Shown: positions 1,095 through 59,716, counted from the stretch's first letter. The stretch is 64,000 nt of DNA from an uncultured Planctomycetales bacterium (GCA_964545575.1 CAZJFL010000002.1:59564-123563), one strand, 5' to 3'. Notes: generated by a model not told the origin, from the sequence alone. Translations and numbers: made by a program.

Positions 1095-1166
1095 GTGTCA
1101 AGGTATCAGGTGTCAAGGTATCAGACGTTACTTACTTTGACACTTTGATACTTGACACTTTGATAC
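1095..1166. repeat. Family A palindromic element built from GTGTCAAGGTATCA / TGATACnnTGACAC units
   Basis: GTGTCAAGGTATCAGGTGTCAAGGTATCAG-loop-TTTGACACTTTGATACTTGACACTTTGATAC, upstream of polX. Confidence 0.8.
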
Positions 1167-7477: not shown

Positions 7478-8712
7478 TTTAGTTCTTTAATTAAGTCTTC
7501 GGCTTTTAGCTCTCTTTGTGCCCCCGATTCCATATCCTTTAAGGTTACTACGCCTTTCTTAAGTTCATCCTCTCCTATAATCAGAACGTATCTGGCGCCT
7601 AAATCATTGGCCTGGCGCAGCGCACCTTTGAGGGATTTACCGGTATAATCGGTATCCGCAGGGATTCCAGCCTTACGCAGCAGATTTAATAATTTTAGGC
7701 CCTCTGCCTTGGCTTCTTCCCCCAAAGATATCAGGTAAACTAACTTGGGGCTTGGAGCTTGGAGCTTGGAGTCAGAAACCAAGAACAGCCTTTCTATGCC
7801 AAAGGCAAAACCCATGGCGCCGGTATCCGGGCCGCCTAATTCCTTAACCAGATTATCATATCTGCCGCCTGCGCCCAGGGCATCCTGAGCGCCTAATCTA
7901 TCGTGTATAATTTCAAAGACGGTGCTGGTATAATAATCCAGGCCGCGCACCAGGCGGGGATTTACGGCATACTTAATTCCTAAAGCATCCAGGCCTTTTT
8001 TCACCCCTTTGAAATGCCCGGCGCAGTCGGCGCAGAGATGTGCGTCGCCAAGCTTCAATGTTTTAATCACCTCAATACAGGCTTCATTTTTACAGTCCAG
8101 GACCCTTAAGATATTGGTTTCAAGCCTCCTGCGACAATCAGCGCAGAGCTTTGCGGTTTTATCTTTCAGGGATTTACCTAACACAGCTACTAACTTTGCT
8201 TTATCTTTGGTGCAGCCCAAGCTGTTAATTTCTATTTTATAATCGGTTATGGAAAAAGCTGCCAGCAGAGCGTCGGCCAGCGCAATCACCTCTGTATCCA
8301 CAGCGGCATCGTGGCCGCCAATGACTTCTACGCCTAAATGATGGAACTGGCGTAATCTTCCTTTTTGCGGCCGCTCCATGCGGAACATCGGCCCCAGGTA
8401 ATAGAGTTTTAAGAAGCCTTTAGTTTTATCCAGGCTATTTTCAAGATAGGCGCGTACCACCGAAGCCGTGCCTTCGGGCCGCAGGGCATATGTGTCGCGC
8501 TCCTTTTTAATCAGAAACATTTGTTTGCGCACGATTTCGGTGGATTCGCCGAGGGAACGGTTGAATAATGCCGCCTCCTCGATTAAAGGCGGGCGGATCT
8601 CCAGGTAATTATAAACAGAGAGTATGCTGCGGGCCGTATTCTCTATGGCCTGCCACCAGGATACTTCTTCGGGCAGTATATCTTTTGTTCCGGTTATTCT
8701 TTTAATCATCAA
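7471..8712 (-). CDS. hisS: Histidine--tRNA ligase
   Basis: 413 aa with N-terminal GTKDILPEE motif, class II core and C-terminal anticodon-binding domain. Contains an in-frame heptamer x3 repeat. Confidence 0.9.
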
Positions 8713-9189: not shown

Positions 9190-12100
9190 CTATATCACTA
9201 AAGATAATTTATCTTCGCCGAGAAGGTTTTCGATATCTTCGATTAATTTCTCCGAAGGAGCAACGTAAAACCCTTCCCCTACCACCAACTGGACGCGGGA
9301 TTTAGCCGGAGTATCCAGGTGCAAATAGATGGGCACGTTCCCGCGCGAAGTAGCTAGTAATCCTTTTAGGCTCTCAAAAAGGTTTTCTCTGGCGCCGGAT
9401 AGATTAATATTCAGGGCAGTGATTAATTTATAGACGTCCTCGACAGGGATTAAGTCATTGACGATGATTTTAGGGGTGTCTTCGCGTAAGGAAAGCCTGC
9501 CCCTGACCAGGACTACGGTATTAGGCTGGATATAGTGGGAGACTTTTTGAAACGCCGCTGGAAAGACGAGAAGTTCTACTATCCCCTCCAGGTCCTCTAA
9601 TTTTAAAATCGCCATTTTTTCCTGTTTTACGCGGGTCAGGGTCTGTTTGATTTTTGAGATCATCCCCACTATTTTTATTTCTTCTGCGTCGGTATGCTGG
9701 CTGAGTTTTGCGATTGAGGTAGAGGCAAAGCGTTTTAAGTGTTGGGCGTAGCGCGCCAAAGGGTGGCCGCTGACGTAAAAGCCGAGCATTTCTTTTTCAA
9801 AAGCGAGCAACTGCGGTTCAGGCCACTCTTTTATTTTGGTAAAACTTTCTTTTAAGCTTTGCTGGAATCCGTTCTGCTTTAATGCCTGATCAAAGAAAGA
9901 TAACTGCCCTTTAGACTGCTCTTTCTGCCTTTTGGAGGAAAGTTCTAATAACCTATCCAGGTTAACCGCCATCTGAGCCCGGGGCATAGTAAAGAAATCC
10001 AGGGCCCCGCATTTAATCAGGCTTTCCAGCACTTTCTTGTTCACTAATCTTAAGTCAATGCGCTGGCAGAGGTCTTCTAATGAGGCAAAGTGCCCCTTTG
10101 TTCTAGCCTGAATTATAGACTCCGCAGCTCCTCTGCCGACATTTTTTATTGCCAGGAGCCCGAAACGGATCTGTTTTTCATCCGCCGCCTTAAACAAGGC
10201 ATCGCTTTCGTTGATATCCGGAGGCAGCACCTGTATGCCCATGTGCGCGGCTTCATTTACGTATTCTACGATTTTGTCGGTATCGTTGCGTTCCGAGGTT
10301 AAGAGCGCGGTCATAAACTCTACAGGGAAATTAGCCTTTAGATATGCAGTGCGGTAAGAAATCAGGGCGTAGGCGGCGCTGTGTGATTTATTGAAGCCGT
10401 ACCCGCAGAAGTGTTCTATGAAATCGAAGGTTTTATTGGCGACGGATTCGCTGATGGCGCCTTTTACGCAGCCTAAGACAAAGTTTTTTCTTTGCTGCTC
10501 CATAACTTCCGGGATTTTCTTGCTCATTGCCCGGCGCAACAAATCTGCCTGGGTGAGGCTAAAACCGGCTAAGGAAGACGCAATCTGCATGACCTGTTCC
10601 TGATAGACCATGATGCCGTAAGTCTCCTTTAAAATCCCCTCGAGTTTTTTGTGGTCGTATCTAATCGGGGTGCGGCCGTGTTTACGCTGGATAAAATCAT
10701 CAAGCATGCCTGAGCCGATGGGCCCGGGGCGGTATAAAGCCAAAAGCGCGATCAGGTCTTCAAACCTCTCCGGCTCCAGTTTTTTCAGCAAATCGCGCAT
10801 CCCGGAACTCTCCACCTGAAATACTCCGCTGGTCTGGGCAGAGGCCAGGAGTTTATAGGTCTTGGGGTCATCCAGGGGAATGTCTTCAATATCAATGGTT
10901 TTGCCCCGCCTCTGCTTTACTATCTTTAAAGTCTGGTCTATCACGGTCAGGGTTCTTAAGCCCAGGAAATCAACTTTCAGCAGCCCGGTTTTTTCCAGCA
11001 TCGTCATGCTGTAACCGGTGGTGATCTGGTCGTCCTGAGTCTTAAATAAAGGCATATAATTATCCAGCGGCTTGTCCGCGATGACCACCCCTGCCGCATG
11101 CACCGAGGCGTGGCGGTTTAAGCCCTCCAGGGATAAAGCCGTATCAATCAGTTGTTTTATCTGCGGGTCGTTTTTATAGAGGCTCTTTAATTCCGCCTCG
11201 CTCTCTAAAGCATCTCTTAAGGTTATGCCCGGGTCAGGGGGGATCATTTTGGCAATCCGGTCCACATCGGCATAGCTTATCCCCATCACTCTTCCGACGT
11301 CCCTGACTACCGCGCGCGCCTGCATCGTCCCGAAAGTGATAATTTGCGCGACATTTTCCTGCCCGTATTTCTTAGTTACGTAATCGATGACCTCCTGCCT
11401 TCTTTCGTAACAGAAATCAATATCTATATCCGGCAGCCCCTGCCTCTGTGGATTCAGGAAGCGCTCGAATAATAAACCATAATTCAAAGGGTTGATATCG
11501 GTAATTCCTAAGAGGTAACTGACCAGGCTTCCCGCAGCCGAGCCCCGGCCGGGCCCCACCGGTATATTCTGGCTCTTAGCGTAATGGATAAAATCCCAGA
11601 CAATTAAAAAATAACTGGTAAAACCCATCTTCTGGATAGTTTCTAATTCGTGTTCCAGGCGCTGGGTGATCTCCGTGCTTAGTGTTTTGAAGCGTTCCTT
11701 TAATCCTTTTTCGCAAAGTTCCCGCAGGAACTCGTCTTTAGTTTTACCTACCGGGGCTTCGTATTTAGGCAGGTGCACTAAAGAGAAATCCAGCTCCAGG
11801 TTGCAGCGCTTAGCTACCTCTTGGGTATTAGCGATGGCTTCGGGAATCTCCTTAAAAAGTTCTTTCATCTCCTGAGGCGACTTAAAATAAAACTCATCGG
11901 TCTGAAAACGCATGCGGTTGGGGTCATCAAGGGTGGTCTGGGTCTGAATGCAGAGCAATGCCTCGTGGCTCCTGGCGTGCTCTTTTAAAAGATAGTGCAC
12001 GTCATTGGTGGCGATCAGGGGAATATTTAATTCTTTGGAGATTTTGATTAACCCCGCATTTACGGCCTTCTGTTCGGGGATTAAATTCTCCTGTACTTCT

Positions 12101-12627
12101 AAATAGAAATTATCTTTACCGAGAATATTCAGGAATTCGTCGGCTGCCTTAAGGGCGTCGTTAAAACGCCTCTCCTTAAGCAGCACCGGGATTTCCCCTT
12201 TAAGGCAAGCGCTCAGGGCAATCAAGCCTTTGGCGTACCGGGAAAGGATCTCTTTATCAATGCGCGGCCGGTAATAAAAACCTTCCAGATACCCGGCTGA
12301 AACCAGCTTCATCAGGTTTTGATAGCCGGTTTCATCCTTGGCTAAAAGGATCAAATGGTAAGAGGCTTCGTCAATCCCGCCCAGTTTTTTTTCCAGGCGG
12401 CTTCCCGGCGCAATGTATACTTCAGAGCCGATAATCGGTTTTATCCCGGCCTTCTGCGCCTCCAGATAAAAATCCATCGCCCCGAACATATTGCCGTGGT
12501 CGGTAATCGCCAGGGAATCCATTTTATAAGCTTGAGCCAGCTTAAGCAGGTCAGGTATGCGGCAGGCGCCGTCTAATAGGCTATATTGGGTGTGCAGGTG
12601 AAGGTGGATAAAATCGGAATGCGGCAT
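9190..12627 (-). CDS. dnaE: DNA polymerase III subunit alpha
   Basis: 1145 aa with N-terminal PHP domain (HLHLHTQYSLLDGA) and the polymerase core; length typical for DnaE. Confidence 0.95.
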   Translation of the reverse strand: MPHSDFIHLHLHTQYSLLDGACRIPDLLKLAQAYKMDSLAITDHGNMFGAMDFYLEAQKAGIKPIIGSEVYIAPGSRLEKKLGGIDEASYHLILLAKDETGYQNLMKLVSAGYLEGFYYRPRIDKEILSRYAKGLIALSACLKGEIPVLLKERRFNDALKAADEFLNILGKDNFYLEVQENLIPEQKAVNAGLIKISKELNIPLIATNDVHYLLKEHARSHEALLCIQTQTTLDDPNRMRFQTDEFYFKSPQEMKELFKEIPEAIANTQEVAKRCNLELDFSLVHLPKYEAPVGKTKDEFLRELCEKGLKERFKTLSTEITQRLEHELETIQKMGFTSYFLIVWDFIHYAKSQNIPVGPGRGSAAGSLVSYLLGITDINPLNYGLLFERFLNPQRQGLPDIDIDFCYERRQEVIDYVTKKYGQENVAQIITFGTMQARAVVRDVGRVMGISYADVDRIAKMIPPDPGITLRDALESEAELKSLYKNDPQIKQLIDTALSLEGLNRHASVHAAGVVIADKPLDNYMPLFKTQDDQITTGYSMTMLEKTGLLKVDFLGLRTLTVIDQTLKIVKQRRGKTIDIEDIPLDDPKTYKLLASAQTSGVFQVESSGMRDLLKKLEPERFEDLIALLALYRPGPIGSGMLDDFIQRKHGRTPIRYDHKKLEGILKETYGIMVYQEQVMQIASSLAGFSLTQADLLRRAMSKKIPEVMEQQRKNFVLGCVKGAISESVANKTFDFIEHFCGYGFNKSHSAAYALISYRTAYLKANFPVEFMTALLTSERNDTDKIVEYVNEAAHMGIQVLPPDINESDALFKAADEKQIRFGLLAIKNVGRGAAESIIQARTKGHFASLEDLCQRIDLRLVNKKVLESLIKCGALDFFTMPRAQMAVNLDRLLELSSKRQKEQSKGQLSFFDQALKQNGFQQSLKESFTKIKEWPEPQLLAFEKEMLGFYVSGHPLARYAQHLKRFASTSIAKLSQHTDAEEIKIVGMISKIKQTLTRVKQEKMAILKLEDLEGIVELLVFPAAFQKVSHYIQPNTVVLVRGRLSLREDTPKIIVNDLIPVEDVYKLITALNINLSGARENLFESLKGLLATSRGNVPIYLHLDTPAKSRVQLVVGEGFYVAPSEKLIEDIENLLGEDKLSLVI

Positions 12628-12632
12628 TTTGG

Positions 12633-12696
12633 CTTATCGCTTATCGCTTATCGCTTATCGTAGAACGATGTGCGATTTGCGATATGCGCTATGCGA
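12633..12696. repeat. Family B palindromic element, intergenic copy between dnaE and guaA
   Basis: GGCTTATCGCTTATCGCTTATCGCTTATCG-TAGAA-CGATGTGCGATTTGCGATATGCGCTATGCG. Confidence 0.85.
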
Positions 12697-12698
12697 GT

Positions 12699-14240
12699 TT
12701 ACTCCCATTCAATCGTTGCGGGCGGTTTTGAGGAGATATCGTAGACTACGCGATTTACGCCTTTGACTTCGTTAATCACGCGGTTAGCAATCTTCTCGAG
12801 GACTTCATAGGGGAGTTTTACCCAGTCGGCAGTCATGCCGTCGAGGCTGGAAACGCAGCGCAAGGCCGCCACATTTTCATAAGTACGTTCATCCCCCATC
12901 ACCCCCACACTTTTTATGGGCAGGAGTATGGCAAAAGATTGCCAGACCTGTTCGTAGAGCCCGGCGCCCCTGATTTCTTCGATCACGCGCTGATCTACTT
13001 CGCGCAGGATATTCAGGTATGGTTGTGTTACCTCTCCGATAATCCTGATCGCTAATCCCGGACCGGGAAACGGCTGGCGGCTGATGATCTGGTCCGGTAG
13101 GCCGAGCTCTCTGCCGATCTGGCGCACTTCGTCTTTGAATAATTCCCGTAAAGGTTCGACGAGTTTTAATTTCATCTGCGCCGGTAGGCCGCCTACATTA
13201 TGGTGGCTTTTGATGCGGCTGGAGGGCGCGCCGCTGGGAGAAAAAGATTCGATGACATCCGGATAAAGAGTCCCCTGCCCGAGGTATTTTACGCCTTTTA
13301 CTTTCTTGGCCTCTTCTTCAAATACCTTGATAAACTCTTCCCCGATAATTTTTCTCTTGTCTTCGGGGTCAGTGATGCCTTCCAGCCGGGTGAGGAATCG
13401 CTTGCTCCTGTCTACGTAATCCAGGTTTAAATGGAAATTATTACGGAAGACATTTTTTACCTGCTGCGGTTCATCTTTACGCAGCAGCCCGTTATCCACA
13501 AAGATGCACCTTAAGTTCCTGCCGATCGCTTTATGGATTAAGATTGCCGCGACCGAAGAATCAACCCCGCCGCTTAAGCCTAAGACCACCTTGTCGCGGC
13601 CGATAGTTTTTTTTAATCCGGCAATGGTTTCTTTGACAAAAGATTCCATGGTCCAGCGGCTGGTGCAGCCGCAGATTTTAAATAAAAAATTAGTTAAGAT
13701 CTGATTGCCTTTTTCCGTATGCGTTACTTCCGGATGGAATTGAACCGCATAAATCTTGCGCTGGCGGTTGCTGATCGCCATAATCGGGGTATTCAGCGTA
13801 TGGGCGGTGGTGCGAAAGCCGGGCGGAAGTTTGTTCACCAGGTCACCGTGGCTGGCCCAACAGGTAAAGTTACCCGGGATGTGGCCGAATAAATCGCGGT
13901 TATCGTCTAAAAATAACTCTACTTTGCCGTACTCGCGCTCTTTGGTGTGCTTGACTTTGCCGCCGAGCATTTCGGTGATTACCTGCATACCGTAACAGAT
14001 ACCCAAGACCGGTACGCCTAATTTAAATATGCCTTTATCGGGATACGGGCTTTTCTTTTCAGTTACCGATGCCGGCCCGCCGGAGAGAATTAACCCTTTG
14101 GGTGACATCGCGGCGATCTCTTTTGCCGGCATATTATAAGGTATGATTCTGGAGAACACTTTACTTACCCTGACGCGCCGGGCAATAAGCTGCGTATACT
14201 GCGAGCCGAAATCTAAAATAAGTATGGTTTGTCTGGTCAT
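12699..14240 (-). CDS. guaA: GMP synthase (glutamine-hydrolysing)
   Basis: 513 aa with a GATase1 domain, the ATP-PPase SGGVDSS motif and a C-terminal dimerisation domain ending in IEWE. Confidence 0.95.
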
Positions 14241-17408: not shown

Positions 17409-17477
17409 TGTGTCAAAGTGTCAGAGTATCAGGTATCAAAGTGCCATGACACCTTGACACTTTGATACTTTGACACC
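17409..17477. repeat. Family A palindromic element between groES and groEL
   Basis: GTGTCAAAGTGTCAGAGTATCAGGTATCAAAGTG...CACCTTGACACTTTGATACTTTGACAC. Confidence 0.8.
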
Positions 17478-19304: not shown

Positions 19305-19340
19305 GATAGTATCAAGGTATCAGGTGTCAAAGTATCATAG
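19305..19340. repeat. Family A element, partial or single-arm copy upstream of coaX
   Basis: TGATAGTATCAAGGTATCAGGTGTCAAAGTATCATA. Confidence 0.6.
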
Positions 19341-23959: not shown

Positions 23960-24026
23960 ATATCAAGGTATCAATGTGTCAATGTATCAAAAAACTTTGA
24001 TACTTTGATACATGACACTCTGATAC
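23960..24026. repeat. Family A palindromic element between yebC and rnpB
   Basis: ATATCAAGGTATCAATGTGTCAATGTATCAAAAAACTTTGATACTTTGATACATGACACTCTGATAC. Confidence 0.8.
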
Positions 24027-24036
24027 TTTTTTAAAA

Positions 24037-24433
24037 GGGGCAGGTAGAATAAGCCGAGTCTTGTCCGGAAACGATTATCCGTTGCCTGGTGATCATTCCT
24101 CTAAGTCCCCGATATTACCATCAGGGCTCAAGCAGCCTACCCGAGATTAGTGACGGGGCGGACAAGCCCCTCATCTCCTATTTGGCCTTGCTCGGCGTAG
24201 AGATTACCTCGTTTCACGTTGCCGCAAAAACGCAAAACGTCGGTAAAACGCAAAAATATTTTGCGCTTTTGCGTAAAAATTTTGCGTTTTTGCGGTTGCT
24301 CGTCTCTGTGGCTCTAAATCCTCTCCGGTTATGCGCCGGAGGGCGGGTATTACCCGCTACGCCTGTCCTCCTGAGCTCGGACTTTCCTCCCGCCATTGAT
24401 TCAGTGGCGGGCGACCACCTTCTACCTGCCCAG
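24037..24433 (-). ncRNA. rnpB: RNase P RNA (bacterial type A-like) with an expanded AT-rich P12-like helix
   Basis: The reverse strand contains GGAGGAAAGTCCGAGCTC and GGCCAAATAGG...GGGTAGGCTGCTTGAGCC...ACAAGACTCGGCTTAT. A P1 pairing of GGGCAGGTAGAA at the 5' end with TTCTACCTGCCC at the 3' end closes the molecule. Confidence 0.85.
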
Positions 24434-25662: not shown

Positions 25663-25736
25663 TGGGCGTAATAGGACTTGAACCTATGACCTCTACAATG
25701 TGAGTGTAGCGCTCTAACCAGCTGAGCTATACGCCC
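25663..25736 (-). tRNA. tRNA-Val (anticodon CAC)
   Basis: Manual cloverleaf fold: GGGCGTA acceptor, GCTC/GAGC D-stem, anticodon loop CTCACAT, T-loop TTCAAGT. CCA is not encoded. Confidence 0.85.
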
Positions 25737-25742
25737 TGTATT

Positions 25743-25807
25743 CGCTTATCGCTTAGCGCATATTGCTTATCGTCCAAACGATATGCGATTAGCCATATGC
25801 GATATGC
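25743..25807. repeat. Family B palindromic element, intergenic copy between two tRNA genes
   Basis: CGCTTATCGCTTAGCGCATATTGCTTATCG-TCCAAA-CGATATGCGATTAGCCATATGCGATATGC. Confidence 0.8.
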
Positions 25808-25814
25808 TAAACTC

Positions 25815-25887
25815 TGGGCCCGCAGGGATTTGAACCCCGGACCAAGTGATTATGAGTCACCTGCTCTGACCACTGAGCTACGGGCCC
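25815..25887 (-). tRNA. tRNA with CAT anticodon (elongator Met or Ile2/lysidine)
   Basis: Manual fold: GGGCCCG acceptor, anticodon loop CTCATAA, T-loop TTCAAAT. No initiator signatures. Confidence 0.8.
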
Positions 25888-34581: not shown

Positions 34582-35463
34582 TTAGATGACCTCTAAGCTT
34601 AAATCTACCGACTCCAGGGAATGGGTTAATTCGCCGATAGAAATAATATCTACCCCGCAGGAGGCGATTTTACGCACACTCTTTAAATCTACGCCGCCGG
34701 AGGTTTCTAGTTTAGTCCGAGGGTGGTGGCTGTTAAAGACAGTGTTATTTCTGATTTTTACCGCTTTTTTAATCTCGGCTAGGTCCATATTATCCAGCAT
34801 AATCACATCGGGTTTAAACCTGAGGGCATGCCTGAACTCATCGAGATTCTGTACTTCTATCTCTATTTTAAACCCTTTGGGCACGCTGGGCAGCCGGTCA
34901 TAACCTGCGGTGACTTTAATATGATTGTCCTTAATCAGAATCATCTCGTCTAAACCCATACGGTGATTGTATCCCCCGCCGATTCTTACGGCGTATTTCT
35001 GCAGTTCGCGCAGGCCAGGCATAGTTTTTCTGGTGTCGGTGATTTTTGTCTTATAGGGCTCTATCTTTCTGACGTATTCGCGGGTCTTAGTAGCCACTCC
35101 CGACATCATCGATATAAGATTAAGCGCTACTCTTTCTGCGGTTAAGATACTCCTGGCTTTTCCGGAAAGTTCGGTGATGATCTTGCCTTTTTGGGCAGGC
35201 TTGCCGTCTTTACTTAAGGGTTTAAAAGAAATGTCCTTATCTACCGCCTTAAACACGGCTTCGGCAACCTCCAGGCCGCAAATTATACAGTCTTCTCTGA
35301 CTAAAATTACGGCCTTAATCTCTTTATCTTCGGGAATAGTGAGCCGGGTAGTGATATCTCCTTTGCCGATATCCTCGATCAGCGCCTTGCGCACGATTAC
35401 TTCCAGCCTTGATTTTTCTATATGGGGAGCCGCATCCGAGAGAAAATATTTATCTAAAGCCAT
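34582..35463 (-). CDS. nadC: Nicotinate-nucleotide pyrophosphorylase (carboxylating)
   Basis: 293 aa, type II PRTase family pattern. Confidence 0.9.
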   Translation of the reverse strand: MALDKYFLSDAAPHIEKSRLEVIVRKALIEDIGKGDITTRLTIPEDKEIKAVILVREDCIICGLEVAEAVFKAVDKDISFKPLSKDGKPAQKGKIITELSGKARSILTAERVALNLISMMSGVATKTREYVRKIEPYKTKITDTRKTMPGLRELQKYAVRIGGGYNHRMGLDEMILIKDNHIKVTAGYDRLPSVPKGFKIEIEVQNLDEFRHALRFKPDVIMLDNMDLAEIKKAVKIRNNTVFNSHHPRTKLETSGGVDLKSVRKIASCGVDIISIGELTHSLESVDLSLEVI

Positions 35464-38299
35464 CTCTTGCCGCCTTTACTTTTTTTAAAGCTTCTTTTAG
35501 CTCCTCTAGTTTAGAGCTTTCTTTTGCTACGATCTCTTCCGGCGCCTTCTTTACAAACTCCTTATTCGCCAAAGTTTTTTCTTTGGCTTTTATTTCTGCT
35601 TCTACTTTAGCGATCCTGTCTTCTAGCTTAGCCTTTTCTTTTTCTATATCGATAACACCTTCTAGGGGAAGAGTGATATGCATGTCTTTGACAATAGCGC
35701 TGATACTGGATTTTATATGGGTATATTTTTGTTCTATATCGAGGCGGCTTAACTTAGCCAGTTTTTTGATCTGGGCAGACAGCCCGGAAACCAGTTCTCT
35801 TGTTTCCTTTGCTGCGCTTGAAATGATGGCGTTTATTTCCTCGTCCTGCGGGATATCCAGCTCCTGGCGCATATTTCTTATAGTGGTGATTGTCTCTAAA
35901 ATCAAGCTCATCCTCTCTTCTAATTTCTTATCGATTATTTGCTCCTGGATGTGCGGCGAGGGCTGAATGCTGATGGATTTCCCTTGATGAGGAAGCGCCT
36001 GCCAGACCTCTTCGCTAATAAAGGGCATAAAAGGATGGATTGCGCGCAGGAACTTTTCCAGCACCTTGTACATGACTACTTGGATTTGCGGATTTTTAAT
36101 ATCTGATTTAATCATCTCCAGGTACCAGTCGCAGAACTCATGCCAGAAGAAGCCGTATAAAAGGTTTGCCGCTTCGTTAAAACGGTAAGCCGCCAAATTA
36201 TTATTTACTTGCTTAAGCGTAGAATAAAATCTGCTTAAAATCCAGCGGTTAACTAAGCCAAATCCTTTATAAGGGGCTGTCCCCGCAGAAGGCGGGGCAC
36301 CAAACCATTCCCGCAAAGGCGGGACACCGACGCATCCTTTAGCGTCGGGTGCAGGTTTGGGTGCCTCCGTAATACCAAGATTCATCAGGATAAACCGGGA
36401 GGCGTTCCAGATTTTGTTGGCAAAGTTCCTTCCCTGTTCAAATCTTTCTTTGGAAAGATGCACATCCTGGCCCTGGGCCGTGATTGCAATCAGGCTGAAA
36501 CGCAGAGCATCGGCGCCGTATTCATTAATAATGTCCAGCGGGTCAATGATATTGCCCAGCGACTTGGACATCTTTTTGCCTTCGATATCGCGCACTGTGC
36601 CGTGGATATAGACATCCTTAAAGGGTATCTCTTTCATGAATTCCAGGCCCGCCATGATCATGCGCGCCACCCAGAAGAAAATGATTTCCGGAGCAGTAAC
36701 CAGAACCGAGGTAGGGTAAAAATAAGCTAAATCTTTTTGCTTATCGCTTATCGCTAATCGCTTATCGTCTTGCACGATATGCGATATGCGATATGCGCTA
36801 TGCTCGAATGGCCAGTAAAAGACCGCAAACGGCCACAGCCAGGAAGAAAACCAGGTATCCAGCACGTCTTCGTCCTGATAGATATCAGTCGAGCCGCAAT
36901 GTGGACACTTGTCGGGTTTAATTCTGGAAACTATAACTCCCTCCTGCTTATCGCTTATCGCTAATCGCTTATTGGCCTTTTGCGATATGCGATATGCGAT
37001 ATGCGATATGCAGTTCTTACAATAATAAACCGGCAACCTGTGCCCCCACCAGATCTGGCGCGAGATGCACCATTCTTGAATATTCTCCATCCAGTCCAAA
37101 TATACCTTAGTCCAGCGCTGCGGATAGAATTTAATTTTACCCTTTTTAACTGCCTCTATCGCCGGTTTTGCCAGCGACTGCATCTTCACAAACCATTGTT
37201 TGGATAAATACGGCTCAATAATGGTGTGGCAACGGTAACAATGGCCTGCGGATAACGGATGAGGTTCGACTTTTTCTAGCAATCCTTTTTCCTTTAAATC
37301 CTCCAGAATTACTTCCCGCGCCTGGAATCTATCCATATCTTTATAATCACCGGCAAACTCATTCATGCGTCCGTCAGGATGCATCACGTTGATAAACTCC
37401 AGCTTATGTTTCTTTCCTAAAAGATAGTCATTAGGATCGTGCGCCGGAGTTACCTTAACCGCACCTGTGCCAAATTTCATATCCACCAGGCTATCGGCAA
37501 TGATTTTTATCTGCCGGTTGATCAATGGTAAAATCAGGATTTTACCGACGAGTTTTTTATAGCGTTTATCTTTGGGGTTGACCGCAACGGCTGTATCTCC
37601 GAGCATGGTTTCCGGACGTGTAGTCGCTACTACGACATGATCAGGGACAGTCCCCTTCAGGGACAGTCCCTGTGCTTCCTTTAGCGGATACCTCAAGTAA
37701 TATAAATTTCCCTGCAATTCGTGGTGTGGCGCCTCTTCGTCAGAAAGGGCAGTCTGGCAGCGCGGGCACCAGTTGATGATGTAGCTGCCTCTATAAATCA
37801 GGCCCTTCTCGTATAATCTGACAAAAACTTCAATCACAGCTTGAGAGTATTCTTCATCCATGGTAAAGCGCGTACGCGACCAGTCGCAGGAAACACCTAG
37901 CTTCTTTAACTGATGAATTATAGTTACACCGTATTGCTCCTTCCATTGCCAGACCCGCGCAATGAATTTTTCCCGGCCTAAGTCCTGACGCTTCAGTCCT
38001 TCTTTGGCGATCGCCTTTTCTACCACATTTTGCGTAGCGATTCCGGCGTGGTCAGTTCCCGGCATCCAGAGGGATTCTTCGCCTTGCATGCGGTGATAAC
38101 GGATAAGGATATCCTGAATAGTGTTATTCAGGGCGTGTCCCATATGCAGAATCCCGGTAACATTTGGCGGCGGGATGACTATAGAGAAAGGCTTTTTTGC
38201 AGGGTCTGCTTTTGCGGCAAAAAGATTATTCTCTTCCCAGAATTTGTACCACTTCTCTTCGGTTTCCTTAGGGCTATATCGAGTAGGTATTTCATTCAT
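35450..38299 (-). CDS. valS: Valine--tRNA ligase carrying two in-frame palindromic-repeat insertions
   Basis: 949 aa class I aaRS with HIGH (ILHMGHALN), WCISRQ, the zinc knuckle CKNC...CPHCGS and KMSKS. Two ~66 bp repeat copies encode the extra peptides ...SHIAYRISQKANKRLAISDKQEG... and ...HSAYRISHIVQDDKRLAISDKQKD... Confidence 0.95.
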   Translation of the reverse strand: MNEIPTRYSPKETEEKWYKFWEENNLFAAKADPAKKPFSIVIPPPNVTGILHMGHALNNTIQDILIRYHRMQGEESLWMPGTDHAGIATQNVVEKAIAKEGLKRQDLGREKFIARVWQWKEQYGVTIIHQLKKLGVSCDWSRTRFTMDEEYSQAVIEVFVRLYEKGLIYRGSYIINWCPRCQTALSDEEAPHHELQGNLYYLRYPLKEAQGLSLKGTVPDHVVVATTRPETMLGDTAVAVNPKDKRYKKLVGKILILPLINRQIKIIADSLVDMKFGTGAVKVTPAHDPNDYLLGKKHKLEFINVMHPDGRMNEFAGDYKDMDRFQAREVILEDLKEKGLLEKVEPHPLSAGHCYRCHTIIEPYLSKQWFVKMQSLAKPAIEAVKKGKIKFYPQRWTKVYLDWMENIQEWCISRQIWWGHRLPVYYCKNCISHIAYRISQKANKRLAISDKQEGVIVSRIKPDKCPHCGSTDIYQDEDVLDTWFSSWLWPFAVFYWPFEHSAYRISHIVQDDKRLAISDKQKDLAYFYPTSVLVTAPEIIFFWVARMIMAGLEFMKEIPFKDVYIHGTVRDIEGKKMSKSLGNIIDPLDIINEYGADALRFSLIAITAQGQDVHLSKERFEQGRNFANKIWNASRFILMNLGITEAPKPAPDAKGCVGVPPLREWFGAPPSAGTAPYKGFGLVNRWILSRFYSTLKQVNNNLAAYRFNEAANLLYGFFWHEFCDWYLEMIKSDIKNPQIQVVMYKVLEKFLRAIHPFMPFISEEVWQALPHQGKSISIQPSPHIQEQIIDKKLEERMSLILETITTIRNMRQELDIPQDEEINAIISSAAKETRELVSGLSAQIKKLAKLSRLDIEQKYTHIKSSISAIVKDMHITLPLEGVIDIEKEKAKLEDRIAKVEAEIKAKEKTLANKEFVKKAPEEIVAKESSKLEELKEALKKVKAARDGFR
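36740..36804. repeat. Family B palindromic element (CTTATCG)n-loop-(CGATATG)n, copy inside valS
   Basis: GCTTATCGCTTATCGCTAATCGCTTATCG-TCTTGCA-CGATATGCGATATGCGATATGCGCTATGC. In frame in valS. Confidence 0.9.
36948..37012. repeat. Family B palindromic element, second copy inside valS
   Basis: GCTTATCGCTTATCGCTAATCGCTTATTGGCCTTTTGCGATATGCGATATGCGATATGCGATATGC. In frame in valS. Confidence 0.9.
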
Positions 38300-38451: not shown

Positions 38452-38652
38452 TTAAATCTTTCCTGCGCGGAATTTATCCTGAAGTTCAACAATTCTTTTT
38501 GGAAGCCTCTTCCTTACTATATACCAAAAATCCCACATTTGCTCTAAGCATTTAAGTCGTTGATACGGTGTTGTATTTTTTACCGCATCCTCAAGATGCT
38601 CAAAAGGCTCTATATCATGAATTTTTAAATTATTTTCTTTTATTTTGTTCAC
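38452..38652 (-). CDS. Hypothetical protein (66 aa) in an AT-rich insertion
   Basis: ORF overlapping the end of the upstream nucleotidyltransferase-fold gene by 23 bp. No recognisable domain. Confidence 0.35.
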   Translation of the reverse strand: MNKIKENNLKIHDIEPFEHLEDAVKNTTPYQRLKCLEQMWDFWYIVRKRLPKRIVELQDKFRAGKI

Positions 38653-39139
38653 TTCTTAACCTCTCGATTTCTTCCAAGTTTCTGACGTCTATGAAATCTT
38701 TCGCTCTTTTAGCCAGTAATTTCAATTTTTTAAGGTGGGCTATGCAAACTACGGGAAAAACCAGGCCTTTTATACTTATTTTCTCTATTCTTTTTTCTAT
38801 ATCGTTAAACTTTATCGGTTCAGTTATAAATGCGTCTACTAATTTTAAATGGTCTTTAAGATGGAAAAATGAAAATACTACCATACCTTTTTTCTGTATC
38901 CACTCTTGGCGCTTTTGTTTATTTTTAAAATCTTCTTTTGTAACCGGAATTTTTGGCCTGTATCCTAAATTATAGAGCGCATCAAAAAACTTATCTAGGT
39001 TCCTTTCGCTTAATTCAACAATTAAATCTAAATCCACGGTTAATCTTGTATAACCATATAAAACAACTGCTACCCCCCCAGCAATTGCATATTTAACTTT
39101 ATTTTTATTTAAAGCTCTAATTACTTCGTTATAATACAT
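38630..39139 (-). CDS. Pol-beta-superfamily nucleotidyltransferase-fold protein (possible toxin-antitoxin or defence component)
   Basis: 169 aa. AIAGGVAVVLYGYTRLTVDLDLIV fits the hG[GS]-x9-13-Dh[DE]h minimal nucleotidyltransferase signature. Embedded in a ~27% GC region. Confidence 0.5.
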   Translation of the reverse strand: MYYNEVIRALNKNKVKYAIAGGVAVVLYGYTRLTVDLDLIVELSERNLDKFFDALYNLGYRPKIPVTKEDFKNKQKRQEWIQKKGMVVFSFFHLKDHLKLVDAFITEPIKFNDIEKRIEKISIKGLVFPVVCIAHLKKLKLLAKRAKDFIDVRNLEEIERLRSEQNKRK

Positions 39140-50946: not shown

Positions 50947-51044
50947 GTTAAGATATCAAAAATCAAAATGCAAATATCAAAGATTATCCCGTGCACTGCA
51001 TGGGATGAATTTAAGCCCAAACGCCAGAGGCGGGCTTAAATTCA

Positions 51045-51118: not shown

Positions 51119-51982
51119 CTAACTACATTTCTTTATCGCCTCTGGGATTTTAGCAATAATATCCGAGGCAATCAAGGAAATTTGCGTCTTCTCTTTAGCT
51201 GCTAAATCGCCGGCTAAACCGTGCAGATAAACCGCATATTTTGCCGCAGCAAACGCAGCCAAGCCCTGCCCTAAAAATGCGGCAATCATTCCGGTTAAAA
51301 CATCTCCGCTTCCTGCCGTGCTCATCCCGGGATTACCGGTCTTATTTATATATAATTTATTTTTATAATCGCTGACTACGGTATGATGCCCTTTCAGGAT
51401 AACGGTTAATTTATAATCCCGAGCAAATTTTTTGGTTATTTTATTTCTGGCGCCCTGAATCTTGGCTATGTTTGTCCCTAACAGCCTTGCCATCTCACCC
51501 GGGTGCGGGGTCAATACAGTTGACAGTTGACAATTGACAATTGACGCTAAGATATCCAAATGGCCGACTAAGGCATTCAATGCGTCAGCATCGATGACTA
51601 ACGGCTTGGCTATTTGCGATATAACCCTGCGTACTAACCCCTGCGTTTGCCGGTTCTGAGAAAGGCCGGGGCCGATTGCCAGAACATCAATATTTTTTGC
51701 AAAGTCTTTTATTCTTTGATAAGCGCCCGGCGCCAATGTCGCTTCTTTTGTCTCGGGAAGCGGCAACGTCATTACCTCCCGAGGCTTAATTCTCATTATC
51801 GCGGTATTCAAACTCTTAGGAATCCCCAACGTCACCAAACCTGCGCCCGTTCGCATAGCTGCCTCTGCGCATAAAACCGCGGCGCCCGAAAAGCGAGCGC
51901 AACCCGCTAAAATAAAAATGTGGCCGAAATCGCCTTTATGGGCGCCGGCTTTTCGGCGTAACAATCGCGAAGGCAGTCGCAT
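51119..51982 (-). CDS. nnrD: ADP-dependent NAD(P)H-hydrate dehydratase (YjeF C-terminal domain family)
   Basis: 287 aa, HKGDFGHIFILAGCARFSGAAVLCAEAAMRTGAGLVT carbohydrate-kinase-like pattern. Confidence 0.85.
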   Translation of the reverse strand: MRLPSRLLRRKAGAHKGDFGHIFILAGCARFSGAAVLCAEAAMRTGAGLVTLGIPKSLNTAIMRIKPREVMTLPLPETKEATLAPGAYQRIKDFAKNIDVLAIGPGLSQNRQTQGLVRRVISQIAKPLVIDADALNALVGHLDILASIVNCQLSTVLTPHPGEMARLLGTNIAKIQGARNKITKKFARDYKLTVILKGHHTVVSDYKNKLYINKTGNPGMSTAGSGDVLTGMIAAFLGQGLAAFAAAKYAVYLHGLAGDLAAKEKTQISLIASDIIAKIPEAIKKCS

Positions 51983-53040: not shown

Positions 53041-54249
53041 TCATGATTTATTTATCTGCTCCGCTACTCTTAACGCCTGTCGTACCGCTTTGACGTCATG
53101 GACCCTGACGATATGCGCTCCGTTTTGCGCCGCTAATACGCAGGCAGAAACCGTGCCGAAAACCCGCTCCTTTGGCGGAGCATTTAAAATCTTGCCGATA
53201 AAGGATTTTCTCGACGGGCCGACCAGTATCGGCATGCCTAAGGCCTTAAAGGCTTTAAGCTTCTTTAATATTTCCAGGTTCTGTTCCGGTAATTTTCCGA
53301 AGCCTATGCCCGGGTCGAGAATGATTTTTGCCTTATCTATGCCGGCAGAAACCGCCTTGCTTATCGCCTGATGGAAATATTCTATAATTTCATCGATTAA
53401 AGATTTATAAACCGGGTTTCTCTGCATGGTGCGCGGATTGCCCTTCATATGCATGATCACTATACCTGCCCTATACTTGGCAACGAGCCTGGTCATGGCA
53501 TTATTTCTTAATCCGGAAATATCGTTCACCATCACTGCCCCGCTATCTAAAGCCTGTTTGGCAACTTCGGGTTTATAGGTGTCTACTGAGATAGGCGCTT
53601 TTATTCTTTTAGACAATAGCTTTATTACGGGCACCACCCTGCTTATCTCTTCTTTTACGCCCACTGCTTTTGCCTGCGGGCGGCTGGATTCGCCTCCTAC
53701 GTCGATAATATCGGCACCGTCTTTAATTAATTGCCCCGCATACTCCAGAATATTAGCCTGGAGCCCGAAGCCCGAAGCCCGAAGTAAACCGTCTCCGCTA
53801 AAAGAATCGGGAGTAATATTCATCACCCCCATAATAGCGGTGCGCTTTGGATTTAAGTTCAACTTGTATCTACCTAAATCAATTCTGAAATTAGCTTTCT
53901 CGTAATTCTCTATTGCGGCTCCCAGCTCTTGAGCCAAAAGGCTCAAACCAAACGGCTGACGGTATAATTTCTGATTCAGGCGGTTAAACTGGGAAAGATT
54001 CCCCATTAACAGGCAGTCTGTTTTTTTGGCCCTGCCGGTCAGGGTATCGCGCGAAACTGCCGCATCAGCCCCCAGAGAAAGCATCTCCTGCTTTAAGATA
54101 TTGGCGGCAATACAGGATAAAGAACCGACTCTTATCAAATGCGTAATCGCCTTAGGGGCCATGATCTTAATGCCGTAAGAGTCGACCCTGATCTGGCGCA
54201 TGATTTGTCTTATCTCTTTAGAATCCGATATGGGTAGGATAGAGAGCAT
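53041..54249 (-). CDS. folP: Dihydropteroate synthase with a ~130 aa N-terminal extension domain
   Basis: C-terminal 270 aa is a pterin-binding DHPS (GVMNITPDSFSGDG...DIIDVGGESSRP). The N-terminal 130 aa is of unassigned function. Confidence 0.85.
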   Translation of the reverse strand: MLSILPISDSKEIRQIMRQIRVDSYGIKIMAPKAITHLIRVGSLSCIAANILKQEMLSLGADAAVSRDTLTGRAKKTDCLLMGNLSQFNRLNQKLYRQPFGLSLLAQELGAAIENYEKANFRIDLGRYKLNLNPKRTAIMGVMNITPDSFSGDGLLRASGFGLQANILEYAGQLIKDGADIIDVGGESSRPQAKAVGVKEEISRVVPVIKLLSKRIKAPISVDTYKPEVAKQALDSGAVMVNDISGLRNNAMTRLVAKYRAGIVIMHMKGNPRTMQRNPVYKSLIDEIIEYFHQAISKAVSAGIDKAKIILDPGIGFGKLPEQNLEILKKLKAFKALGMPILVGPSRKSFIGKILNAPPKERVFGTVSACVLAAQNGAHIVRVHDVKAVRQALRVAEQINKS

Positions 54250-58665: not shown

Positions 58666-58788
58666 TTAAACTCTAAACCCTAAACACTAAATCCTAAACA
58701 AATCCAAAACCCAAAATACAAAACGTTTTGAGTTTTTTAGTTTTGAATTTTGAGTTTGTTTAGAGTTTAGGATTTCGGATTTAGGATT
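58666..58788. repeat. Long imperfect palindrome (~60 nt arms) made of AAACCCTAAA / TTTAGG(G/A)TTT-like units, centred on AAAACGTTTT
   Basis: Intergenic between acsE and acsD. The left arm is rich in CTAAA(C/T)CC units and the right arm carries the mirror TTTAGGATTT units. Confidence 0.8.
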
Positions 58789-59716
58789 TATATAAATCTC
58801 CTATGTATTTGTTTACTTTTTCTATAGCCAAGGGATGCCGCATTACTAAAATATCCGCGCCGGCCTGAATTAAAGCCGTGGCAGTAATCACTTCCCACAT
58901 TATCCCCTGCTCTGCTTCTGCCTTAGCTTCTTTTGCCCGCCAGGATTCCTGCCCCGCAAAACAAATAAAAGGACTGGCTACGGTTTTATCACCGGCTAAG
59001 GCAGCTAAACGCGCCCGCTCCATAATCGAATAGGCGTATTCCAAACCGTAACCTAAAGCGCCGATGGTAGGATTAATCACGATCCGTTCCAGCGGCAGGC
59101 TCATATCGGAAATCAGAATATTCAGTTGTTTGGCAATATTTATGTCTATGGGCGACTCCGCGATAAGATTATGCCCGTCGGCTAACACTGCCGCCGCCAG
59201 AGTCTTATAATTATCCTGCGCGGCGCAACCGACAAGGCAACGCTCTCCTTTTGCCGCTTCGCAGACCGCCGGTAATACCAGATTGTCTTTTTCGTCATCG
59301 CCGCATCCGACGATGATCAAAGGCACTCCTACCTTTTTTAATAATTGCCTGACGAGATCCGCTTCTGCCTCAGGGGTCTTATTGCCGAAATCCGGATGCG
59401 CGCCTTGAAGCCTCAAACATAGAAGCCCTGTCCTATGCTTTTCTACGCACATTTGCGCCCAGGTAAGCGGGTCTTTTAAACTATCGCCGTAAGCGCCTGC
59501 CAATTCCTGCGGCCAATCACCAGGGATAACATCCCAGATTTCGGAAGCGATTACCGGCGGGTAAGGCAAATTGCCTTCGGCGAATAAAAACGGCAGGGCT
59601 CTCTGTCCCCCGACCCCGATGGTTCCCTGGCGGCTGCCGCCTTCGGCTTTCTGGGAGCCGATAGTCACTACTGCCACTTCCCCGGACCACTTTTCCATAA
59701 TCGATTCTAATGCCAT
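58781..59716 (-). CDS. acsD: Corrinoid iron-sulfur protein small subunit (CODH/ACS delta subunit)
   Basis: 311 aa. Aligns along its length with Moorella AcsD (GG..ALPF...VVGCGD.EKD..VL..V...NIIA.SP.DIN..KQLNIL...LP...IV.DP..G.LGYG.EY..SIMER.RL.AL.GDK). Confidence 0.93.
   Translation of the reverse strand: MALESIMEKWSGEVAVVTIGSQKAEGGSRQGTIGVGGQRALPFLFAEGNLPYPPVIASEIWDVIPGDWPQELAGAYGDSLKDPLTWAQMCVEKHRTGLLCLRLQGAHPDFGNKTPEAEADLVRQLLKKVGVPLIIVGCGDDEKDNLVLPAVCEAAKGERCLVGCAAQDNYKTLAAAVLADGHNLIAESPIDINIAKQLNILISDMSLPLERIVINPTIGALGYGLEYAYSIMERARLAALAGDKTVASPFICFAGQESWRAKEAKAEAEQGIMWEVITATALIQAGADILVMRHPLAIEKVNKYIGDLYKS

Follow-up and report, generated by a model that had tools for sequence, protein, structure and literature searches.

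The extreme case of in-frame insertion of palindromic DNA, as far as the accounts cited from a 2024 review go, is that of the Rickettsia palindromic elements (RPEs) reported by Ogata et al. in 2000 and 2002 (PMC10969869; cited in PMC5896051), and the same review calls an RPE-like process in other prokaryotes 'conceivable' (PMC10969869). Other small repeats are to be considered beside them. REPINs, which are hairpins built of paired repetitive extragenic palindromic (REP) sequences, have conserved inverted ends and a less conserved spacer, carry no transposase of their own and insert into or next to existing copies (PMC3116915), and the ends of REP sequences are tagged by a GTAG or CGTC tetranucleotide (PMC3733652). 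Heptanucleotide repeats are the most abundant long simple sequence repeats (LSSRs) in many bacteria, sometimes inverted and sometimes intragenic, mostly at protein edges; examples are the STRR (short tandemly repeated repetitive) sequences of Calothrix/Nostoc, GGGAATC of Xanthomonas, and TAACTGA of Beggiatoaceae and cyanobacteria (PMC4692102, PMC4679880). In addition, in-frame transposable elements of the miniature inverted-repeat kind (MITEs) are described elsewhere, namely QMITE1 and QMITE2 of Coxiella and intragenic ERIC of enterobacteria (PMC5896051, PMC10969869). Here we analyse two in-frame palindromic elements in valS, the gene of valyl-tRNA synthetase (ValRS), on a stretch of 64,000 nucleotides (hereafter the window) deposited as an uncultured Planctomycetales bacterium (GCA_964545575.1, CAZJFL010000002.1:59564-123563). 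Our analysis shows that they belong to a class of hairpins made of tandem 7-nt units, which is a second, differently built counterpart of RPEs, widespread across a phylum, Candidatus Omnitrophota.

The element, termed family A, reads on the plus strand as four GCTTATC units, a short loop and four GCGATAT units, about 65 nt in all, with a tandem period of 7 and 3.9-4.4 units per arm according to Tandem Repeats Finder. A 26-nt probe of the left arm matches the window at 12633, 36740 and 36947 with at most one mismatch, against 0 matches expected in 100 shuffles, and repeat finders add a fourth, more diverged copy at 25743..25807. When the four copies are aligned, their arms are invariant while their loops are variable and unrelated. 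Each copy folds into a hairpin on either strand (-14 to -22 kcal/mol, z -3.1 to -7.7), mismatched once per 7-nt unit, T.T on the plus strand and A.A on the minus strand. All four are placed on the minus strand. Two of them lie in valS: site 1 (36947..37012, residues 431-454; dG -22, z -7.7) reads on the coding strand (GCATATC)4, the loop CAAAAGGCCAA and then AATAAGC GATTAGC GATAAGC GATAAGC, its in-frame TAA being changed to TTA, and site 2 (36740..36804, residues 500-523; dG -20 to -21, z -4.7 and -5.5) stands before FYPTSVLV. The other two are intergenic, one (12633..12696) between guaA (12699..14240) and dnaE (9190..12627), with four canonical GATAAGC units and TAA kept, and the diverged one in the spacer between tRNA-Met (25815-25887) and tRNA-Val (25663-25736). 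Outside the window, among the loci compared here (L numbers), family A is found in valS of L002, L202, L203 and L204, in intergenic DNA of L204 (position 179) and in tgt of L175; on the whole there are four window copies and copies in six other loci, and 16 copies were aligned. Family A is always two-armed and inverted with the fixed mismatch per unit, and never a one-directional array, with loops of 5-19 nt. None of the elements is covered by a known RNA family in Rfam.

The diverged copy takes up nearly all of the 78-nt tRNA-Met/tRNA-Val(CAC) spacer, and because the spacer is almost filled by it, the copy must be co-transcribed with tRNA-Met and tRNA-Val. Family A both adjoins tRNA-Val and sits in valS, which may be a coincidence. 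As for the mismatch, in family A, in an octamer family B described below and in the hairpins of L003, L006 and L015 it is always an A of the coding-strand 5' arm opposite an A or C of the 3' arm, or T.T or G.T when read on the template strand; this regular asymmetry could reflect strand-biased mutation, or else the strand on which the hairpin is used.

The host gene (35450..38299, minus strand) is a single intact open reading frame (ORF) of 949 aa which runs through both elements. Its product matches ValRS of T. thermophilus (1GAX) with an E of 7e-211 and contains the Pfam domains tRNA-synt_1, Anticodon_1 and Val_tRNA-synt_C; the catalytic motifs are conserved, and the four zinc-knuckle cysteines are invariant in 41 orthologues. 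The nearest relatives of this ValRS all belong to Candidatus Omnitrophota, the best being 76% identical, and the host of the valS elements is a member of Candidatus Omnitrophota. The gene order of leuA-like, valS, nadC and uvrB, with coaX and groES/groEL farther downstream, is conserved in relatives, and the first 42 kb of the window hold housekeeping genes only. Site 1 corresponds to the peptide ISHIAYRISQKANKRLAISDKQEG between the zinc-knuckle pairs C427-x2-C430 and C465-x2-C468, and site 2 to HSAYRISHIVQDDKRLAISDKQKD ahead of FYPTSVLVTAPEIIFFW, while the peptides at the junctions of element and host are NCISHIAYR, LAISDKQEGVIVSR, FEHSAYR and LAISDKQK. Both sites are gaps in 1GAX, the gap of site 2 directly before the conserved FYP...VT block. 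An AlphaFold2 model (949 aa, 41 close homologues aligned), with a mean pLDDT of 62 and a catalytic core of low confidence, is too poor to place the two loops, for which a surface position, as proposed in the sequence-only reading of this DNA, is presumed; both sites vary in length among orthologues. The results otherwise agree with that reading, which had proposed two elements of about 66 bp in the valS frame (one start moves from 36948 to 36947, the other coordinates being right), read through without stops into two peptides of about 22 aa that the ORF yields exactly as quoted there. Its placement of the peptides in the zinc knuckle and before the conserved segment is borne out by the 1GAX alignment, and the further intergenic copies that it listed (12633-12696 and 25743-25807) are recovered by the probe and the repeat finders. 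That the repeat is the inserted party also holds, in view of the gaps in 1GAX, the short orthologues, the presence of the same element in intergenic DNA and in tgt, and the removal of in-frame stops, as does the claim of a lineage unrelated to Rickettsia.

Since 7 and 3 have no common factor, the heptapeptide that an arm encodes is the same cyclic one in whichever frame it is read. Thus (GCATATC)n gives AYRISHI, and (GATAAGC)n gives DKR*AIS, that is, one TAA per 21 nt in every frame, the repaired form being DKRLAIS. Each of the nine family A copies in valS (window, L002, L202, L203 and L204) has TTA or TTG where the phase-0 TAA would stand, while 15 of the 18 out-of-phase units of these copies keep their TAA. 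At site 0 of L203 the element is in another phase, and the changed unit is the one in phase there; the tgt copy of L175 has the TAA change as in the valS copies. Among three intergenic copies, two (window 12633 and L204 position 179) have all four canonical GATAAGC units. The change of in-frame TAA, with out-of-frame TAA mostly kept, therefore indicates selection against in-frame stops, and this pattern argues against splicing or ribosomal bypass. In most coding copies it is the same unit (unit 2) that is changed, and this shared unit suggests that an ORF-compatible sub-lineage may spread among coding sites.

We then compared the gene with 1GAX and about 200 ValRS orthologues, including 80 Omnitrophota reference genomes with the gene. 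Judged from these alignments, both valS peptides are insertions; in many orthologues both places are minimal, site 1 reading for example 'CQAV' or 'CDGV' and site 2 'PKESAD'. At least eight extra residues are present at site 1 in 60 of 121 proteins and at site 2 in 31 of 121, and extra residues are found in 29 and 27 of 81 reference genes, respectively. The same variability is seen at a third site (site 0), about residues 207-220, where the editing domain begins. The inserted peptides are internally repetitive and differ between genomes, most of them representing other repeat families. Four orthologues (P0003, P0031, P0035 and P0042) have the same family at the same sites, while the inserts of the closest orthologue (76-82% identical) are unrelated to those of the window. 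The DNA under the inserts of L003, L006, L012, L015, L026, L033, L042 and others forms hairpins with arms of tandem 7- or 8-nt units, which are specific to each genome (z -2.8 to -5.1) and usually have one mismatch per unit; other orthologue inserts are one-armed arrays at the same sites, and elements in relatives reach about 240 nt. Repeat inserts at the same residues are present in intact genes of dozens of independent metagenome-assembled genomes (MAGs) from other studies. Overall, sites 0, 1 and 2 of valS are phylum-wide hotspots, occupied either by hairpins or by one-armed arrays, with differing units of 7-8 nt. The expectation of the earlier reading, that orthologues would show two clean gaps of about 22 aa, holds for the many short orthologues but not for the 60 and 31 of 121 with extra residues, mostly of other families; where its peptides recur, in the four orthologues named, they carry repeat character, which leaves the earlier reading standing.

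Many hairpins at site 1 that look unlike one another (L003, L006, L015, L024, L033, L042, L065 and L077) share the 5' flank AAACAGGCAAACGAG (KQANE), followed by units of AGTCGAT, AGTTCAT, AGTCCAC, AGTTAAC or AGTGAAC. The 3' arm is complementary to the unit variant of its own genome, which is a co-variation of the arms within one superfamily. In L077, valS is frameshifted near residue 745 (about 11860-11900), at a point free of heptamer repeats; the probable cause is a mistake of assembly or a genuine lesion, in either case unconnected with the elements.

The arms are shared far beyond what the genes around them would lead one to expect. At site 2 the arms of the window and L202 are identical at 30 of 30 and 27 of 28 positions, and arms are at least 95% identical between genomes which are saturated at valS synonymous sites; the surrounding valS of the same genomes has 70-73% nucleotide identity, with 0.40-0.49 of the synonymous third positions identical (71% and 0.40 for the window and L202). 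Because they are near-identical despite the diverged synonymous sites of valS, the arms are not neutrally inherited. Peptide words are shared by 17 of 83 pairs of inserts from different sites of one protein and by 167 of 9793 pairs taken from two proteins (odds ratio 14.8, p 1.3e-13). This sharing of families within a genome is a tendency and not a rule, as in L006 and in L042 two sites carry unlike families, and at the DNA level it is seen in 2 of just 5 pairs in the reference loci.

Close relatives also differ at the sites. The proteins P0072 and P0062 are 97.8% identical outside the hotspots, and their DNA (L200 and L201) 96.3%, while at site 1 the hairpin arms of the two differ by 51 nt and 36 nt, and at site 2 a 129-nt hairpin has given way to an array of 45 nt unrelated to it, the exchanged stretch being cut off sharply behind TGGCCGTTT and ahead of TTR...TATTTYTATCC. 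In pairs with 88-93% identity, all three sites may hold different families. As for the gene of the window itself, the exact 949-aa protein is found on two public contigs, one at NCBI (131,692 nt) and ENA ERZ27248937 (L206), the latter being identical with the window over 3,850 nt including the whole of valS. The contig ERZ27248953 (L205) of a sister sample starts inside the site-1 element; it equals the window for 175 nt on the upstream side and for about 5,400 nt on the downstream side, bar one unit, its 5' arm at site 2 (coding strand) having three units in place of four. This difference is either true heterogeneity in unit number or a consensus error, and the deletion points to slippage. 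The claim of an intact gene is thus backed by two assemblies and by the orthologue of L202, which has the same four-unit arm, and is touched, though not overturned, by the broken valS of ERZ27248953.

On a larger scale, 1.35 Mb of Omnitrophota DNA yield 24 tandem-unit hairpins under strict detection, as against none from 314 kb of shuffled sequence. The same 1.35 Mb contain 73 arrays of period 7, while any other period from 5 to 12 has at most 9, and none is left after shuffling. Besides valS, the hosts include nadC, with seven arrays in six genomes at two sites, a threonine-synthase-like enzyme dependent on pyridoxal phosphate, with arrays in four genomes at one site, a GltD-like protein, and tgt on the metagenome contig L175, which has a complete in-frame family A hairpin. 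With so many units, sites and genes across the phylum, the two valS elements therefore belong to a phylum-wide class. A scan of metagenomes with a 20-mer of the left arm hits at least 119 contigs, nearly all of them with unrelated one-directional (ATCGCNN)n arrays and about six with hairpins. The (ATCGCNN)n arrays, in L081-L199, mix CGCTTAT, CGCATAT, CGCGTAT and CGCCTAT units, and their contigs range in GC from 0.25 to 0.71 and come from soil, freshwater and marine samples; this particular class of heptamers is therefore widespread far beyond Omnitrophota.

Compared with the systems described above, the elements resemble RPEs, as these are summarised in the sources cited, in being dispersed palindromic families which insert in-frame into unrelated housekeeping genes, keep the ORF and give a conserved peptide, and which also occur in non-coding DNA and RNA genes. 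However, RPEs are there given as about 100-150 bp long, without tandem-unit arms, confined to Rickettsiales and divided into families 1-10, while the Omnitrophota elements have many unit families, protein sites refilled by different families, and slippage of unit number, and are thus set apart from RPEs by description. The comparison with RPEs made by the sequence-only reading is right for the in-frame palindromic insertion and not for the anatomy, which here means tandem heptamer arms and about 65 nt. Its statement that such insertion is known almost only from Rickettsia is fair in that RPEs are the extreme case, but overstated, since in-frame MITE fusions are called 'not unusual' (PMC10969869) and heptamer arrays in ORFs have been described (PMC4679880, PMC4692102). 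With REPINs the elements share a single-strand hairpin, conserved arms with a variable spacer, many copies, genome-specific families, the lack of a transposase inside the element, and clustering (PMC3116915). REPINs, however, are extragenic and have ends that do not consist of tandem heptamers, whereas ORFs contain two of the window's four copies and the majority of those in relatives, and the ends of the 16 aligned family A copies have no conserved GTAG or CGTC tetranucleotide. The known LSSR/STRR repeats likewise have an excess of period 7 and a dispersed, chiefly intergenic distribution; now and then they come as inverted pairs or encode cyclic heptapeptides in ORFs, and slippage has been proposed for them. 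They are mainly one-directional and near start codons or protein edges, whereas in Omnitrophota inverted arrays form hairpins, which recur at given positions within the catalytic body of essential enzymes. MITEs are similar as small non-autonomous repeats occasionally fused in-frame with ORFs, but the known ones occur sporadically, chiefly at the ends of genes or in hypothetical proteins, with terminal inverted repeats and direct repeats of the classical type. The element is therefore classed apart, because it differs from RPEs in size, family and host, from REPINs in not being extragenic and in the end tag, from simple repeats in being composite, and from MITEs in having no target-site duplication. 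We found no description of these elements in Omnitrophota in the open-access literature, and a study of 421 Omnitrophota genomes makes no mention of repeats, palindromes, hairpins or transposases.

How the elements arise and move is a question on which we give a probability of about 0.6 to the following reading: family A is a small, non-autonomous, dispersed hairpin of heptamer arrays, one of many such families in Omnitrophota, which is translated in valS and spreads in trans in the manner of REPINs. Of this, the data show the dispersed two-arm element, its persistence in frame with in-frame stops removed, changes of unit number, recurrent sites and families specific to genomes. The element consists of two near-complementary arms, each of about four tandem 7-nt units, around a short variable loop, and its copies are placed in transcribed intergenic spacers and at a few permissive positions of housekeeping genes. 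Copies in valS would stay in the mRNA and be translated into peptides of about 22 aa in the zinc-knuckle loop and before the FYP block, and only those with a frame-keeping length and a changed in-frame TAA persist. Arm length shifts by whole units, probably through replication slippage, so that the sites are unstable and the host gene may be thrown out of frame. Spread in trans may use a hairpin-forming single-stranded intermediate and an enzyme encoded elsewhere in the genome, as proposed for REPINs with their REP-associated tyrosine transposase (RAYT) or for IS200/IS605-type elements; it is by analogy with these that we infer a hairpin-dependent route. The copies of families A and B in the window are all in one orientation relative to the genes, which fits a strand-specific, single-strand mechanism. 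New copies may land preferentially in or beside existing ones, and this preference together with selection would lead to recurrent hotspots and to a cassette-like swap of one family for another.

A number of points weigh against this reading. The loops differ in sequence and length even among copies of one genome, which simple copy-and-paste would not give, and no target-site duplication, direct repeat or conserved flank is found around the 16 family A copies. The high identity of arms between genomes could come from selection on the arm sequence instead. Among the 30 proteins annotated in the window at 1-42 kb there is no transposase or RAYT-like gene, a genome-wide search not having been made. 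A route of the REPIN type does not explain the tandem 7-nt arrays of the arms, nor the one-armed arrays at the same sites, nor the identical single mismatch in each unit. Translation of the valS elements is deduced from the DNA sequence alone, and in ERZ27248953 the one GCATATC missing from the site-2 5' arm shifts the frame and leaves a truncated ValRS. Finally, period-7 arrays number 20.2 per 100 kb in valS, as compared with 2.0 in the remaining coding DNA and 11.7 in intergenic DNA, but the tenfold enrichment in valS is only approximate, because valS anchored all reference loci and the coding mask was crude. An unlikely variant is a dedicated Omnitrophota system, in which a trans-acting factor working in a 7-nt register would install and replace hairpin cassettes at defined sites, essential genes included; if it is true, the hotspots of valS, nadC and the thrC-like gene, the sharp swaps and the genome-specific units would amount to targeted rewriting rather than random insertion and selection.

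Other explanations do without mobility. Heptanucleotide repeats might arise on the spot by slippage, with the second arm made by fold-back copying and no mobile element involved, the likeness between copies then being due to convergence or short-tract gene conversion. Such a local origin is in accordance with the dominance of period 7, as for the long simple sequence repeats of many bacteria (Mrazek 2007, as cited in PMC4679880), with the directly visible changes of unit number, the one-armed arrays at the same sites, the unrelated loops and the (ATCGCNN)n arrays in contigs of GC 0.25-0.71. We hold it to be improbable as the whole account, as the identical two-arm element, with its mismatch per unit and the TTA variant of unit 2, stands in valS sites 0, 1 and 2, in tgt and in intergenic DNA of synonymously saturated genomes, where an independent rise of identical 28-nt arms is not credible, and the sharing of families within proteins is highly significant. 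The arrays might also be functional cis-elements, bound by a host factor in a 7-nt register or acting as structured signals for processing, stability, termination or regulation, with the ValRS peptides as a tolerated by-product. The arms are indeed conserved far above the synonymous background while the loops drift, the intergenic copies occupy spacers that are transcribed (those separating tRNA genes or operon genes, and the one that follows RNase P RNA), heptamers have been proposed as sites of post-transcriptional regulators, CspB binding one protein per heptamer (PMC4679880), and one family tends to recur across the sites of a genome, as if the specificity of a factor set the unit. On the other hand, about half of the orthologues are without an insert at site 1, and relatives that are 92-98% identical differ in presence or family; because inserts are often absent or of another family in relatives, no conserved function is tied to the valS sites. 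A one-unit change which frameshifts an essential gene would also be a heavy cost for a regulatory site, and we identified no factor, so that this explanation too is doubtful. Local slippage and selected binding or structure elements nevertheless remain live as partial contributors.

It is very unlikely that the elements are kept out of the protein by removal from the mRNA, as for introns, or by a hop of the ribosome, though a strong hairpin stands exactly at the insert and an allele with an arm shorter by 7 nt exists, which skipping of the hairpin would render harmless. Nine of nine copies have lost the in-frame TAA, with out-of-frame TAA kept in 15 of 18 units, all four TAA units are kept in two of three intergenic copies, and the frame is kept by all intact orthologues across many insert lengths; a skipped segment would call for neither the lost stops nor the kept frame. 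Mis-assembly of repeats into valS, or a dead gene, might be suspected from the one assembly whose contig breaks in the site-1 element and has a frameshifting unit deletion at site 2; with an identical intact ORF in two assemblies, repeat inserts at the same residues of intact genes in dozens of independent MAGs, and conserved catalytic motifs and all four zinc-knuckle cysteines, we give this hardly any weight. The same small weight goes to native, lineage-specific functional extensions of ValRS from which the intergenic copies would be derived. The same peptide family does recur at the same sites in several orthologues, but the closest orthologue (76-82% identical) has unrelated inserts, proteins 88-98% identical differ in family, the same DNA element is found in tgt, the tRNA spacer and the guaA/dnaE gap, and the peptide is dictated by the 7-nt periodicity of the DNA. 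Telomerase-like addition at ends was also considered and rejected; it predicts perfectly complementary arms, while in every family examined each unit has its one constant mismatch and the orientation is constant too.

Over two decades hardly any well-documented selfish palindromic DNA has been known from essential protein genes apart from RPEs, and Omnitrophota provide an independent case with hundreds of natural replicates. The refilled positions of ValRS (three), NadC, the threonine-synthase-like enzyme and others form a natural map of the places at which an enzyme can take 10-80 additional residues, and a system for the study of how new protein segments arise from non-coding repeats. The class also joins the topics of bacterial heptanucleotide excess and hairpin-type mobile elements, which are mostly dealt with separately, and since its arrays make up a defined element with many families, the question 'why seven?' may become testable. 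In practice, the repeats break contigs and may cause false or real frameshifts in core marker genes of MAGs, and they inflate the apparent divergence in aminoacyl-tRNA synthetase alignments used for phylogeny.

Two further inserts of valS in the window are of other kinds. At site 0 (37643..37670, minus strand; z -4.6) a short palindrome, GGGACTGTCCCTGA, stands twice and encodes GLSLKGTVP (residues 211-219). The palindrome GGGACWGTCCC occurs 21 times in 1.42 Mb, against about one expected, encodes peptides of the GQSPxGTVP or GLSPKGTVP type and is met again in many genomes at valS sites 0, 1 and 2; it seems to form a second family of in-frame palindromic repeats, of far smaller size. Site 3 (36257..36364, minus strand; dG -32.8, z -5.0) is a GC-rich segment of 36 aa, APKPAPDAKGCVGVPPLREWFGAPPSAGTAPYKGFG (residues 646-681), placed between the catalytic and anticodon-binding domains, which is absent from all of the about 200 orthologues and for which BLAST of the reference data gives no second copy. 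Next to valS, an ORF of 169 aa (38630-39139, minus strand) lies between it and the leuA-like gene; it has no Pfam match, and no gene is called at its place in the syntenic loci L202, L203 and L204.

The rest of the window holds other repeats of the class, those of families B and C, the in-frame arrays and the P12 hairpin being on the minus strand. Family B is an octamer hairpin (GTGTCAAG / TTGACACT) with intergenic copies just downstream of panE (1095..1166) and upstream of groEL (17410..17477), another copy (23961..24029) which starts 7 nt past the 3' end of RNase P RNA, and a one-armed octamer array at the 5' edge of coaX (19309..19337). Family C is a long intergenic hairpin with TAAACCC-like heptamer arms (58667..58790). 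One-armed arrays are found in-frame in three genes: (CTTGGAG)4 in hisS (7744..7771), giving 10 residues between the catalytic and anticodon-binding domains, with a unit that also builds valS and thrC-like inserts in other genomes; (ACAGTTG/ACAATTG)4 in the NAD(P)H-hydrate dehydratase gene (51516..51545), encoding ASIVNCQLSTV; and three units of AGCCCGA in folP (53762..53784). The RNase P RNA gene (24036-24429) probably also hosts a repeat hairpin, as its P12 region (24222..24295; dG -38.8, z -4.8) is a long hairpin with arms of tandem CGCAAAA(A), across which the Rfam alignment is poor. In heterocyst-forming cyanobacteria, STRR heptamers are reportedly present inside the RNase P RNA gene (rnpB) as well; there too an essential gene would tolerate the heptamers at a spot where the structure permits it, but the host is an RNA gene in another phylum, while here the main hosts are protein genes, the P12 hairpin of CGCAAAA units being the case in the window. 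In addition, an (ATCAAAA)n array (50955-50981) lies between tRNA-Tyr and tRNA-Thr, and repeats seem to favour the spacers of stable-RNA operons.

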